Below, in pieces: positions 16,071 through 20,720 of a stretch of 64,000 bases of DNA (position 1 is its first letter; each line of letters begins with the position of its first letter). A program made the position numbers and the translations under genes. The notes beneath the pieces were generated by a model that saw only the letters and a list, made by a program, of their open reading frames with translations, was not told the DNA's origin and ran no database searches. The stretch comes from Escherichia phage JS10. Where the stretch lies: the sequence record EU863409; one strand, written 5' to 3'.

Positions 16071-16105
16071 CAAAAAAGGAGAGCTTACGCTCTCCTTTAG
16101 GGGTT
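16070..16105. terminator. Bidirectional terminator between gp54 and the leftward early genes
   Basis: Hairpin aggagagc-ttac-gctctcct with an A-run upstream and T-rich run downstream. Confidence 0.6.
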
Positions 16106-16395
16106 TATTTACGGAACGAAATGAAACCTGCTGCGGTCATTAATGGCTGCTTTTTAACAAAGACCGTGATAGAAATAGGAGCTTCAGATTCAAGCTGACC
16201 GGTTACTACACCATTAAAGATATTTTCAGTTTGTTCAGGTTGTGAAAAATTTTCAACCGGGCGTAAGTCGAACTGTTTGTCTTCGCCGAAAACTCGGCGT
16301 AATTCATTACCGACTGCACTGTCGAACTCTTCAGAAGCAGGGATAACGTTTTCAACTACCAGTTCTTGACCGTTAAAGCGGAATGTAGATTTCAT
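16105..16395 (-). CDS. hypothetical protein downstream of alt
   Basis: 96 aa ORF with ATG start and a GAGGA-like RBS. Confidence 0.5.
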   Translation of the reverse strand: MKSTFRFNGQELVVENVIPASEEFDSAVGNELRRVFGEDKQFDLRPVENFSQPEQTENIFNGVVTGQLESEAPISITVFVKKQPLMTAAGFISFRK

Positions 16396-16452
16396 AATGT
16401 TCTCCTCATGTTTGTGTAAGGTAATAGTACCACATCCTTGTGGTGTTGTAAA

Positions 16453-18576
16453 CTACATTTTGAATTTATTTGGTAAAGAAGAGATGTCCAAAGATGCAGC
16501 AAGGATTTCCATAGCCTCATTACTTTCTGAAACAGATTCTGAAACTAGGAATTCTTTAAACCCATTCATCAATTTAACTTCACCGGTTTCCATCAGATGG
16601 TCGCCATCGTAAACGGACTCACTGAGTTCTGAAGGAGATGTCACTGTAGCTTCCATAAGGTATTTGTGAGATACTCTATCATTCATAGCAAAAGCCGCTA
16701 CTTTATCAACCTTCAACAATAATCCGCGCGGAAGGATAATTTCTGCTTCTTCAGAATATTCCGTAAGGTCACCAGGAGCGATAACTTTAACTGCTTCAGC
16801 ACCTCGAATAACCATACCGATTTCAGCAATCCTGTCTGCAGGGCCTTCAGGTGCAATTGGATTACCGAACTCATCTTCTTCCCATTCTACCTCTTCATCA
16901 TCAACTTCACCTACGTCAGATGAACTACCACTAGCCAATTTAAACAACTCATCGGCGGAGGATAAAGAACCTTCATCACCAACAAAAACTGCTTGGTTGT
17001 CGAGGGCCATATAATTTTTACCAAATTCGCCAAAGATGTTAGGCTTTAATGAAGCGGACACAAAGTTCTTAAAGTAAAATGTTTTGTTATCAATATTATG
17101 GCGTAGAATTTTGTATGGTAAATCCTGGCCACGATACAAAATAGTACCCTTAGGAAGTTTAATACCCTTAGTAAATGCTGAGTCTAAATCCTTAATCAAT
17201 TTAATAGCTGTTGTATTGTTTTCGGATTCAGGTTTACCTAAAAGGAATAAGTTCATAGGAGCATATTCAGCTGCACAATATTCGATAATGGCATTACTTT
17301 CGTCTTTTGTCAAGCCCTTAGGTTTAATGAGCTCGCCTGAATAAGCATACGCATCGCCAATAGAATCGTTAATTAGTTTATAAACGGCTTCCATAGCGAA
17401 AGCAATTCGGGATGCTTTCTCTGAAGGAGACCCCTGAAAACGGGCACTCAGGTTATTAACAATTCTCTTAATAATATCCAGACTATTGGTAGTATTGATT
17501 TGAGAAAGGCCGCTTAAAAGTCTATCGACTTCCGTATTAAAAAACGCCATATTATTAGAGTAAATTTCAAACCCTTGTTTATCTCTATTAGCATAATTTA
17601 GTTTAAATTTACTATCAGTCATTAAAGCGTGCGTGAGAGCAATGGTGTATCTAAAGTTGGCAAGGTCCTCACTCTTAGATTTAAACTGAGAGGCCTGTCG
17701 CATTTTAGTAATAGCACCTTTTTTAAAGTTCTGGCTAATCTGCTCAATACCTTCGTTCTCAGGGCCTTCGGCCGAGTGAACAGGTACAGAAACTTCAAAC
17801 TCGTTATAAACCTGCAATTCTTTAGGTGATAAAGTTTCAGGTTCGGCAGTAGAATACTGCGCTGCTGCAGCCATACGACGGGAAATTTTAGTACGAGAGA
17901 TAACGGCCTTATCGGTACGTTTCTCTTCAACCTGTGCAATAGATGCCGCTACGGCTTCGACCTTACTTACGGCCTGTCCGGTTTTCTTAGAAACATAAAC
18001 TTCACCGACTTTAGACTCAACCTTGGTATAAAGGTCCGCATCAATTTCAGGCATACCCTTGATATCTTCAATATTAGTGCCACGACGTGCTAAAAGAACG
18101 TATGTATGTTTACCACTAAACTGGAACATATCATCAACAACTTTAAACTTACCACCAGTACGAGCCATAGCCAAACGAGCTAATACACGCTGAACAGTAG
18201 GACCCTTACCTTTCATTTTCTTGGTAGGGAAACGGAACAAAACTGCATCCATTTTAAGTTTACTTACTTGTTCGTATATCGTATCGAAAATAGTATTCAA
18301 TGCACCAAGAGGGTCAGAACCAAGGCCACCTTTGAGTTCAGCTGGAGCACCCTTGCTCGACAAACTCATTAAAATAACATGAACGTATTTGTCGCCAGGC
18401 TTAACCATTTTAATAGCGTCTCCTTGAGACGCATAAGATACCATACGAGCAACAAGATTATCATTACCCGGTGCTTTAATAGAGAAAATCTGTGGGATAC
18501 CGGAGCCCGGCTTAAGATTTGTTACTGGATAGTTTTTAGCGGAATCACTATCAAAAACTTCGTTTAAATTTTCCAT
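16453..18576 (-). CDS. alt: Alt-type ADP-ribosyltransferase (packaged head protein), paralog 1
   Basis: 707 aa; C-terminal domain has the R (YRGQ), S-x-S (FVSASL) and E-x-E (EAEIILPRG) ADP-ribosyltransferase motifs; position between 54 and 30 as T4 alt. Confidence 0.85.
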   Translation of the reverse strand: MENLNEVFDSDSAKNYPVTNLKPGSGIPQIFSIKAPGNDNLVARMVSYASQGDAIKMVKPGDKYVHVILMSLSSKGAPAELKGGLGSDPLGALNTIFDTIYEQVSKLKMDAVLFRFPTKKMKGKGPTVQRVLARLAMARTGGKFKVVDDMFQFSGKHTYVLLARRGTNIEDIKGMPEIDADLYTKVESKVGEVYVSKKTGQAVSKVEAVAASIAQVEEKRTDKAVISRTKISRRMAAAAQYSTAEPETLSPKELQVYNEFEVSVPVHSAEGPENEGIEQISQNFKKGAITKMRQASQFKSKSEDLANFRYTIALTHALMTDSKFKLNYANRDKQGFEIYSNNMAFFNTEVDRLLSGLSQINTTNSLDIIKRIVNNLSARFQGSPSEKASRIAFAMEAVYKLINDSIGDAYAYSGELIKPKGLTKDESNAIIEYCAAEYAPMNLFLLGKPESENNTTAIKLIKDLDSAFTKGIKLPKGTILYRGQDLPYKILRHNIDNKTFYFKNFVSASLKPNIFGEFGKNYMALDNQAVFVGDEGSLSSADELFKLASGSSSDVGEVDDEEVEWEEDEFGNPIAPEGPADRIAEIGMVIRGAEAVKVIAPGDLTEYSEEAEIILPRGLLLKVDKVAAFAMNDRVSHKYLMEATVTSPSELSESVYDGDHLMETGEVKLMNGFKEFLVSESVSESNEAMEILAASLDISSLPNKFKM

Positions 18577-18579
18577 TAT

Positions 18580-20664
18580 TTACCCTTGGATGAATTTTTC
18601 TGGTATGTCATAGAGGTCTATGCATGAAGCCAAAAGAGGCAGTACGTCAAACCGTGTAGATTTAACAAATGAATCAAAAGATACAGGGCTTTCGGAAGTA
18701 TCGAAGTCATCTTGGTATACGACCAACTCACCGGTTTCCATTAGTACGTCACCATCATACACTACAGATTCTTGAAGCTCATCCGTCGTCATAACTTCGG
18801 CTTGAACGAGTTTTGTATTACTAGATGTCGTTCCGTCATTATTAGAGGCATCAGTTATTTTATTAACTTTGACCATCAATCCGCGTGGTAGAATAACTTC
18901 AGCTTCTGTTGCTATTCCAAGACTTCCTGGATATACCGCATTAACTTTATGGGCTCCATCAATTGCCCATCCTATTTGAACTTTAACGTAATCAGGGTTT
19001 TCTTTATACGCTCTTATTTCATTAGGATTAATGGTTATTCCTTCTTCATTTTTATCGACTGTCAATTCGTTGCGAACTTCCGGTTCTAAAAGACCAACCC
19101 CGGCATGTGTAACACCAAAACGTCCAAAAATGATAGGAGTCAGTGAAGTAGATACAAAATTTCTAAAATAAAATACCTTATTTTTAACTAGTGCTTCGTA
19201 TATAGGAGCGGTCATACTCTGTGCACGATAAACTGTAATGCCTTCTGGTATACGGTCACCATTTTCAAAAGCTGAATCAAGATTATTAACAGCAGATTCA
19301 ATAGACCTTTCATTCATTACATCATAGTTCTGAGGATTATAACGTCCTAAAAGAAGATTATTGATGTCGGTATAACCTGAGCCGCAGTATTCTCTGATGC
19401 CGCGCTTTTGTGATGGGGTGTATTTAGAACCATCACGAGCGATAGTAATATCGACCATAATACCACCACCTACACCGGCAAAACTATAAATGCGTTTTTT
19501 AATGAACTTGGTCTTGGCCGCTTTCCACTTGGACTCGGTTAATTCATTCCAGACGTCGTCAGGTTGACCTTTACGAGTTTTGTTATGCATAGCCAGCCAT
19601 TCGCCTTTATATTCTTCAAAAACCGTATTAATAACAGAGGCATATTTTTCTAGAGCTTTAACAGATGTCAAAGGTTCGTTTTTGATGGCTGTAAGAATTT
19701 TATCTTTAATTTTCTCTTGGATTTCACCTATACCGTGAAGAGGAAACATTTTATATTCGTAATGCAATTCTTCAGCAGTGCCTTCAGCTACTATATTAGC
19801 AACTTTATTTTTAGCCGCAGGAGAATTGTTATTAGTGACCATTTCCTGTGCCTCAGGGATTAATGGAGCTGTTGCAGGTTTATTAAAATCTGCTGCAGTA
19901 GCTTCATATTTCTTAAACAGTTCACTTTCATTACGATAAGATTCTAAAGACTGACTTGCTGCAATAGCGCGACGAGAAATCTTAGTCTTGGTTATAACCA
20001 TTTTATCAGTGCGACGTTCTTCAACTTTAGCAATACTGCCGGCAATAGCAGTTTCTTTAGTAACCTGCACACCTTCTTTTTTAGAAATATAAACTTCACC
20101 AACATCAGAATCTACCTTAGTATACAATTCGGCATTAATTCCTGGCATACCTTTGATATCTTCAATATCAGCTTGTTTACGAACTACTAGGATATAAGTA
20201 TGTTTACCGGTAAATTGGTACATAGCCGGAACTACTTTGAAGCGTCCACCAGTTTTTTGAGTTACCAGACGTTGGATAATCCGTTGGACAATAGGCCCTT
20301 GCCCTTTCATTTTCTTGGTTGGAAAACGGAACATCACAGCATCCATACGAAGCTTTTTAACTTGTTCGAATACTACGTCGAAAATGGTATTAATAGCATC
20401 AATAGGAGTAGGGCCTAAGCCGCCTTTAAGTTCGGCTGGAGAACCTTTAGCCGAAAGGCTCATAAGGATAACGTGGGCGTATTTATCACCTAATTTAACC
20501 TGTTTAATAGCATCGCCTTCAGAGGCATAAGATACCATACGAGCAACTAATTGGGATTCGACATCACCAATCTTCCAAATCTGGGGTACTTTAAGTTTCG
20601 GGTTTAAGTTTACAGTAGGCAGCGTGCCTTCAGACTCAAACACTTCATTTAATTGTTCGGTCAT
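18580..20664 (-). CDS. Alt-type ADP-ribosyltransferase, paralog 2
   Basis: 694 aa; N-terminal ~230 aa close to paralog 1; C-terminal YRAQ / FVSTSL / EAEVILPRG motifs intact. Confidence 0.85.
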   Translation of the reverse strand: MTEQLNEVFESEGTLPTVNLNPKLKVPQIWKIGDVESQLVARMVSYASEGDAIKQVKLGDKYAHVILMSLSAKGSPAELKGGLGPTPIDAINTIFDVVFEQVKKLRMDAVMFRFPTKKMKGQGPIVQRIIQRLVTQKTGGRFKVVPAMYQFTGKHTYILVVRKQADIEDIKGMPGINAELYTKVDSDVGEVYISKKEGVQVTKETAIAGSIAKVEERRTDKMVITKTKISRRAIAASQSLESYRNESELFKKYEATAADFNKPATAPLIPEAQEMVTNNNSPAAKNKVANIVAEGTAEELHYEYKMFPLHGIGEIQEKIKDKILTAIKNEPLTSVKALEKYASVINTVFEEYKGEWLAMHNKTRKGQPDDVWNELTESKWKAAKTKFIKKRIYSFAGVGGGIMVDITIARDGSKYTPSQKRGIREYCGSGYTDINNLLLGRYNPQNYDVMNERSIESAVNNLDSAFENGDRIPEGITVYRAQSMTAPIYEALVKNKVFYFRNFVSTSLTPIIFGRFGVTHAGVGLLEPEVRNELTVDKNEEGITINPNEIRAYKENPDYVKVQIGWAIDGAHKVNAVYPGSLGIATEAEVILPRGLMVKVNKITDASNNDGTTSSNTKLVQAEVMTTDELQESVVYDGDVLMETGELVVYQDDFDTSESPVSFDSFVKSTRFDVLPLLASCIDLYDIPEKFIQG

Positions 20665-20694
20665 AATAATTCCTCTTTAATAACCGTATTTATG

Positions 20695-20720
20695 CCATAA
20701 AAGGCCCGAAGGCCTTAAAG
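20695..20720 (-). terminator. Hairpin terminator (- strand) upstream of the alt paralogs
   Basis: aaggcc-cgaa-ggcctt followed by a T-run on the - strand. Confidence 0.4.

Follow-up and report, generated by a model that had tools for sequence, protein, structure and literature searches.

Organization of the alt locus in Escherichia phage JS10

The DNA analyzed is a stretch of 64,000 nucleotides (nt) from Escherichia phage JS10 (sequence record EU863409), a T4-type coliphage of the genus Dhakavirus. This whole stretch is referred to as the window, and positions are those of the window unless another phage is named. Its minus strand contains two adjacent genes, altA (upstream) and altB (downstream), which encode ADP-ribosyltransferases (ARTs) of the Alt family. 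Alt is an internal head protein that is injected together with the DNA and acts as an arginine-specific mono-ADP-ribosyltransferase before any phage gene is expressed. The analysis described below indicates, with a probability of roughly 0.8, that the JS10 locus consists of two tandem late genes, the products of which are paralogous members of the T4 Alt family and most likely differ in the sets of host proteins that they modify. A preliminary description, made from the sequence alone, had reported two adjacent open reading frames (ORFs) of about 700 amino acids (aa) with similar N-termini. Indeed, the ORF listing gave exactly two minus-strand ORFs at the coordinates concerned, separated by 3 nt, encoding proteins of 694 and 707 aa that are 65% identical over residues 1-240 (BLASTP, E = 1e-102). 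Both genes, as taken from the ORF listing, and the domains of their products are as follows:

18580..20664, minus strand: altA, 694-aa Alt-family ADP-ribosyltransferase, upstream copy, with a cassette of the T2/RB68 Alt type
16453..18576, minus strand: altB, 707-aa Alt-family ADP-ribosyltransferase, downstream copy, of the T2/RB68 full-length 'alt.-2' type
19951..20664, minus strand: AltA N-terminal domain (aa 1-238), including the motif L-N-E/V-F at aa 5-9, a predicted prohead-protease site
19420..19950, minus strand: AltA middle region (aa 239-415), class I, T4/T2-Alt-like
18745..19419, minus strand: AltA ART catalytic domain (aa 416-640), with R480, S505-T-S507 and E587-A-E589
17857..18576, minus strand: AltB N-terminal domain (aa 1-240), compact alpha/beta, with a presumed role in head packaging and delivery
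17317..17856, minus strand: AltB middle region (aa 241-420), all-helical in the AF2 model, class II
16627..17316, minus strand: AltB ART catalytic domain (aa 421-650), with R482, S507-A-S509 and E610-A-E612
16843..17025, minus strand: AltB acidic insert between S-x-S and E-x-E (aa 518-578), predicted to be disordered

The alt pair is flanked on one side by homologues of genes 29, 48, and 54 and by alt.-3, and on the other side by alt.1 and gene 30, which encodes DNA ligase. T4 shows this order as well (30 / alt.1 / alt / alt / alt.-3 / 54). The 5-kb alt region is 92-98% identical to that of Esco_phi_B-01, NC-G, dhaeg, and IME08, and AltB is 100% identical to the JS10 protein entry P0001. Two plus-strand ORFs (18221-18382, 53 aa, within altB; 20315-20530, 71 aa, within altA) were rejected as genes and considered antisense artefacts. 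Their translations are alike (MVGKRN.TASI...PPLSSAG.PL), because both ORFs are antisense to the duplicated N-terminal domain.

Family membership, paralogy, and catalytic motifs

Both proteins share with T4 Alt a full-length homology, the R / S-x-S / E-x-E motifs, and the genomic position. The homology with T4 Alt extends over about 700 aa (BLASTP; AltA, 47% identity, E = 0; AltB, 33% identity, E = 2e-104), and both proteins match phrog_802 ('Alt-like RNA polymerase ADP-ribosyltransferase') along their entire length (AltA residues 1-693, 874 bits; AltB residues 1-707, 835 bits). In addition, the Pfam family PF03496 (ADPrib_exo_Tox; gathering threshold of 23.4 bits) was retrieved in AltA (123.2 bits) and AltB (64.7 bits); a search of NCBIfam gave no match to either protein. 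Precomputed Pfam annotation assigns a second family, PF26846, to every Alt homologue returned.

The catalytic triad that the preliminary description had quoted for both copies is present in each of them, namely as VYRAQ at residue 478, FVSTSL at 503, and TEAEVILPRG at 586 in AltA, and as LYRGQ at residue 480, FVSASL at 505, and EEAEIILPRG at 609 in AltB. The E-x-E form of the R-S-E transferase motif is the arginine-specific one. In an alignment of 68 family members (AltB numbering), S507, E610, E612, and the LPRG that follows are invariant, and R482 is conserved in at least 90% of the members. For T4 Alt, an E577A variant is inactive (PMC11404850). Direct counting places the two E-x-E glutamates of NP_049811 at E574 and E576, and the published numbering hence appears to be offset from that of this entry.

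Outside the N-terminal region, AltA and AltB are far less alike. The C-terminal part of about 300 aa is 34% identical (BLASTP, E = 3e-38), and BLASTP found no significant match in the stretch that separates this part from the N-terminal region. By region, the identity amounts to 11-15% for the middle regions, about 40% for the ART domains, and about 41% for the C-terminal tails, so that the middle regions and the extreme C-termini differ, as had been described. The residues preceding E-x-E differ too, namely TEYSEEAE in AltB, with an aromatic residue, versus GIATEAE in AltA.

The alignment was also inspected for inactivating changes, a check that the preliminary description had proposed. Both copies are intact, with no catalytic residue removed. 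Moreover, the ratio of nonsynonymous to synonymous substitution rates (dN/dS) among four Dhakaviruses is 0.03-0.08 per gene and is equally low over codons 241-650 (0.02-0.09 within the cassette formed by the middle region and the ART domain). Both altA and altB are thus under strong purifying selection.

Fold of the catalytic domain and peculiarities of AltB

A structure model (AlphaFold, AF2) was obtained for AltB only, with a predicted local distance difference test (pLDDT) score of 78 and a predicted template-modelling (pTM) score of 0.74. Its ART core (residues 420-650) was modelled confidently, with a pLDDT of 85-96 outside the insert. A Foldseek search of the Protein Data Bank (PDB) with this model retrieved Vis, Certhrax, C3bot, Plx2A, iota toxin, CDTa, and VIP2 (E values of 7e-7 to 2e-4, target template-modelling scores of about 0.6, sequence identities of 12-19%). 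Similarly, HMMER pairs VYRAQ of AltA with LIVYRRS of iota toxin, and EAE of AltA with EYE. A sequence search of the PDB returned nothing for AltB and only weak matches to iota toxin and CDTa for AltA, indicating that no Alt structure has been solved.

Two features set AltB apart. Instead of the S-T-S found in at least 90% of the family, it contains S-A-S, and its ART domain harbors a disordered acidic insert of 61 aa (residues 518-578), with 17 aspartate or glutamate residues versus two lysine or arginine residues and a pLDDT below 50 at residues 518-539, 550-565, and 573-578. In AltA, T4 Alt, and the alt.-2 product of T2/RB68, the corresponding stretch is shorter by approximately 30 residues. 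Both features, as well as the lower Pfam score of AltB and the description of Alt as a head core protein too (PMC11404850), would be in agreement with a catalytically dead AltB that is kept as a structural protein, as an internal protein of the head, or as a decoy that binds substrates. Yet neither S-A-S nor the insert removes a catalytic residue, as R482, S507, S509, E610, and E612 are all present. In addition, the confidently modelled core matches active toxins, the low dN/dS holds within the cassette, and S-A-S also occurs in another family member (P0011). A dead AltB is therefore considered very improbable.

The N-terminal domain

The N-terminal domain of AltB, when modelled alone, adopts a confident alpha/beta structure (pLDDT 88), with residues 1-13 disordered. 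In all copies compared, T4 Alt included, residues 4-7 contain L/I-x-E, and (V/L)F comes next. This arrangement, L-x-E/(V/L)F, would fit the cutting of a small N-terminal peptide from T4 gpAlt by the prohead protease. T4 Alt occurs at about 40 copies per head, and its small N-terminal peptide is removed by gp21 (PMC9958956).

A phage genome search located the N-terminal domain at 1809 places in 1200 records. By sequence the domain is rare: a set of 1.84 billion proteins contained 70 representatives, the length of which is 600-710 aa in almost all cases. Ten proteins of atypical length with this domain were scanned, and five of them (including P0170, P0171, and P0173) lacked a Pfam ART match. 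Furthermore, the BFVD contains the fold of the domain, at 11-20% identity, in large uncharacterized phage proteins of 500-1280 aa, carried by Vibrio phage VP-1, Erwinia phage phiEa2809, Dickeya phage RC-2014, Shigella phage MK-13, and Agrobacterium phage Atu_ph07. This suggests that the N-terminal domain is a delivery module that may bear other payloads, an interpretation with which these data are compatible without proving it.

Mosaic structure of the alt genes

For a comparison by module, eleven proteins were split into N-terminal domain, cassette (middle region plus ART domain), and C-terminal tail. The N-terminal domains group by genus and slot, with an identity of 97-99% within a slot, 66-70% between different slots in the same genus, and 41-46% when genera are compared, regardless of the slot; that of AltA is 66% identical to that of AltB and 45-46% identical to those of Tequatrovirus. 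The cassettes, in contrast, cluster according to type, irrespective of the genus. That of AltA shares 82% identity with that of T2/RB68 Alt (in RB68, 68% for the middle region and 93% for the ART domain), 51% with that of T4 Alt, and 50% with that of JS98 alta, and the AltB cassette is 52-54% identical to that of the second copy of T2/RB68 and 28-35% identical to all others compared. The C-terminal tails group by slot, the B tails being 61-67% identical across genera.

Several pairs of phages reveal this mosaic directly. Alta of JS98 (L005 1690-3777) and AltA of JS10 are 98% identical up to residue 250 approximately and again beyond residue 650 approximately, and only 26-78% identical per block of 50 residues between residues 251 and 650. 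One cassette has thus been cleanly replaced by another in two sister phages, the AltB proteins of which are nearly identical (dN of 0.004). Similarly, Alt of T2 (L007 1404-3497) and of RB68 (L004 1642-3735) share an N-terminal domain with T4 Alt (L003 2455-4503) at 99% identity, but a cassette at approximately 51%. The combination of this T4-like N-terminal domain with a cassette that is 82% identical to that of AltA points to cassette transfer between genera. Bp7 (P0006) combines an AltB-type N-terminal domain (92%) with a T4-like cassette. In MX01, AnYang, QL01, C6, and other phages with three alt copies, the third copy is located between the A and B copies; that of MX01 (L002 4082-6127) combines an N-terminal domain of the B type (91%) and a tail of the A type (68%) with a cassette that is distinct and contains E-Q-E.

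The middle regions fall into two classes, as assessed with hhalign. Class I comprises AltA, T4 Alt, and the third copy of MX01 (97% probability), and class II comprises AltB and the P0004 type (96% probability). No homology was detectable with hhalign between the middle regions of AltA and AltB (0.3% probability). The middle region and the ART domain behave together as an exchangeable cassette between constant flanks.

These data bear on the origin of the pair, which the preliminary description had called a tandem duplication. The locus does carry tandem intact Alt paralogues, but the term is too simple, as the N-terminal domains follow the genus, the cassettes follow the type, and the two middle domains lack detectable homology. 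A recent duplication specific to Dhakavirus, followed by a rapid divergence of the C-terminal half, had been implied and could account for the greater likeness of the AltA and AltB N-terminal domains to each other than to any Tequatrovirus N-terminal domain. Such a scenario is quite unlikely, since the cassette and tail of AltB are closest to those of the second copy of T2/RB68, the cassette of AltA is closest to that of T2/RB68 Alt, and the same gene junction occurs in both genera. Further, the N-terminal domains of AltA and AltB are only 49% identical at four-fold degenerate sites, and their longest identical run is 23 nt. Both values indicate that these domains split long ago, and they rule out a recent gene conversion between them. 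Either gene conversion in the distant past or an adaptation of both domains to the prohead core of the same phage accounts better for the likeness of N-terminal domains within a genus.

Expression and gene junction

The sites considered relevant for the expression of the alt pair, and the gene that comes next after altB, are the following:

20687..20714, minus strand: hairpin GGCCTTCGGGCC and T-run (20699-20714), then CATAAATA, upstream of altA
18574..18588, minus strand: in-frame altA/altB junction CAAGGG TAA ATA ATG
16105-16395, minus strand: alt.-3 homologue (96 aa, phrog_1739), next after altB
16075..16098, minus strand: terminator-like hairpin and T-run downstream of alt.-3

A scan of the region for sigma-70 promoters and terminators gave no more sites than in shuffled sequences, and only promoter and terminator sites supported by their position were used. 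Upstream of altA, the stop codon of alt.1 is followed by the hairpin GGCCTTCGGGCC, its T-run, the promoter-like CATAAATA, and a strong Shine-Dalgarno sequence. This hairpin with its T-run is identical in T4, T2, RB68, JS98, IME08, and MX01, whereas its flanks have diverged, and it corresponds to a conserved terminator that Nolan et al. 2006 (PMC1524935) described upstream of alt. In T4, T2, and RB68, the canonical late promoter TATAAATA comes after the same hairpin, at the place equivalent to that of CATAAATA in JS10; the exact string TATAAATA is absent near altA and altB. T4 alt is expressed late (PMC9697503).

The start codon of altB lies one codon past the stop codon of altA, in the same frame, and the last codons of altA, for glutamine and glycine, provide a Shine-Dalgarno-like AAGGG. 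The junction CAAGG(G/A)TAAAT(A/C/G)ATGGAA is kept in IME08, JS98, MX01 (both junctions), T4, RB68, and T2. The promoter-like site homologous to the T4 alt late promoter, together with this conserved 3-nt in-frame junction and the AAGG of its glutamine and glycine codons, makes late co-transcription of altA and altB from that site, and their translational coupling, likely. In MX01, both junctions are identical over 51 nt, indicating that the junction is a probable recombination site for the gain and loss of copies. Successive alt copies are always in the same frame (TAA-ATN-ATG), so that a single stop read-through would fuse both proteins.

The hairpin and T-run downstream of alt.-3 likely form the end of the alt transcription unit. 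The alt.-3 gene has a promoter-like site of its own, resembling T4 early promoters, at 16424-16452 (TTTACA-17-TACTAT with TG). For T4, it has been reported that C-terminal extensions of Alt.-3 allow escape from the CmdTAC defence system (PMC11618068).

Distribution and known relatives

An alt pair has already been annotated in close relatives of JS10 and is common among T-even phages. In the GenBank records of JS98 and IME08, the pair is named alta/altb and described as Alt RNA polymerase ADP-ribosylase; the JS10 proteins are 97.7% (alta) and 96.5% (altb) identical to those of IME08. Three copies are present in MX01, AnYang, QL01, C6, and others. T2 and RB68 possess an alt gene encoding 697 aa, followed 3 nt further by a second gene encoding 685 aa. 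With the C-terminal 467 aa of AltB as tblastn query, 457 phage records covered at least 80% of the query, and the matches listed at 97% coverage were those of T2/RB68-like phages, at approximately 50% identity.

The preliminary description had correctly stated that T4 has a single intact alt, with alt.-1, alt.-2, and alt.-3. The contrast with T4 and the novelty that it implied did not hold, given the annotated alta/altb pairs, the pair of T2/RB68, and a truncated remnant in T4 itself. Indeed, alt.-1 and alt.-2 of T4 (ORFs of 61 and 67 aa) are together 86% identical to the N-terminus of the second copy of RB68 and 56% identical to T4 Alt, which indicates that T4 lost most of a gene kept in T2 and RB68. 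Both ORFs are thus a truncated remnant of the AltB-type copy. In the T4 GenBank record, alt.-1 and alt.-2 are jointly ascribed to an ancient duplication of the initial part of alt. Nolan et al. 2006 (PMC1524935) listed alt paralogues of RB49, 44RR, and T4, some partial and some of full length, and Petrov 2010 does not mention alt. As the genes have names in GenBank, and as the annotation of the T4 genome and the study of Nolan et al. 2006 had already mentioned the duplication of alt, the presence of the pair adds little as a finding. At this locus T4 is atypical, as T2 and hundreds of other T-even phages have a second intact Alt.

Proposed function

Each protein consists of four modules, namely an N-terminal domain of about 240 aa, a helical middle region of about 180 aa, a C3/VIP2-like ART domain, and a short, slot-specific C-terminal tail. 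AltA and AltB would be made late, and by analogy with T4 Alt both may be incorporated into the prohead core by means of their shared N-terminal domain, trimmed after L-N-E, and injected with the DNA. In the host, both would use NAD to ADP-ribosylate arginine residues of host proteins, a reaction to which their fold and motifs point and for which the arginine specificity is presumed. T4 Alt is injected and modifies Arg265 of the RNA polymerase alpha subunit, in addition to other proteins (PMC2988021).

The targets of AltA and AltB probably differ, because their middle regions are unrelated, their ART domains are only about 40% identical, and the residues in front of E-x-E are not the same. Alternatively, both enzymes could be redundant, modifying the same targets (Arg265 of RNA polymerase alpha and the usual Alt substrates), with the duplication raising the injected dose. 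The E-x-E motif in both proteins, the packaging domain that they share at 65% identity, and their organization in one apparent operon would suit such a dosage effect. However, a dosage duplicate is expected to stay similar or to be lost, whereas the AltB type is distinct from the AltA type across two genera. This adds to the low identity of the ART domains, the lack of detectable homology between the middle regions, and the different residues before E-x-E (TEYSEEAE versus GIATEAE), which makes redundancy unlikely.

Two paralogous late enzymes with most likely different host targets therefore remain the preferred interpretation of the JS10 pair. Several points weigh against it. The S-A-S motif or the acidic insert could alter or reduce the activity of AltB, and the promoter-like CATAAATA is a 7/8 match to TATAAATA instead of the canonical sequence. 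In addition, the case for different target sets is drawn from sequence divergence, no experiment on AltA or AltB of JS10 was found in the searchable literature, and the virion proteomics retrieved from the literature concern single-copy cases, none being found for a two-copy phage.

On a wider scale, the T-even alt locus may, tentatively, be a cassette-exchange array in which the N-terminal domain, the C-terminal tail, and the junction serve as recombination arms, and by which a phage would inject one to three enzymes with different targets. The exchange is visible in the sequences compared here, and the difference in targets is presumed. Such an array would comprise at least five warhead types, with two classes of middle regions without detectable homology, swapped within and between genera; for instance, one warhead might act on RNA polymerase, and others might counter toxin-antitoxin proteins or proteins of host defence. 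No description of such an organization of the alt locus was found in the searchable literature, and this picture of the locus, of moderate interest, is what the present analysis adds. ADP-ribosyltransferases of phages and hosts are under active study (ModB RNAylation, CmdTAC). A comparison of both injected enzymes, aided by natural cassette swaps in nearly identical backgrounds such as those of JS10 and JS98, would offer a simple route to what sets the target choice of Alt.

Comparison with known systems

Among the closest known counterparts of the JS10 proteins is T4 Alt (gpAlt, NP_049811), which has the same family, locus, four-part layout, R-S-E motifs, and L/I-x-E at residues 4-7 as both JS10 copies, and a late promoter element at the same upstream position as in JS10. 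The difference is that T4 possesses one intact alt and JS10 two. The second copy of T2, RB68, and RB32 ('alt.-2') occupies the downstream slot of AltB, 3 nt after alt and in frame, and has the middle-region class of AltB as well as a tail ending in KFKM, as in AltB. In contrast, its N-terminal domain is only 45% identical to that of AltB, and most of the acidic insert is absent from it.

Outside the phages, the C3-like and VIP2/iota-type toxins (PF03496) resemble Alt in their catalytic fold and in the arrangement of R / S-T-S / E-x-E. These toxins are secreted or are components of binary toxins, whereas Alt carries a phage-specific N-terminal domain and a helical region and is delivered from the capsid. 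Finally, the polymorphic-toxin-like or MuF-fused phage effectors (Iyer et al., PMC5512222, PMC9503650) combine a constant delivery module with a fast-evolving enzymatic payload, as Alt does. Unlike these effectors, the N-terminal domain of Alt is not MuF, the cassette is not accompanied by an immunity gene, and the payload in the proteins analyzed here is nearly always an ART. A polymorphic toxin has its cognate immunity gene directly downstream; at the alt locus, the next gene is another alt or alt.-3, and the latter is conserved whatever the cassette.

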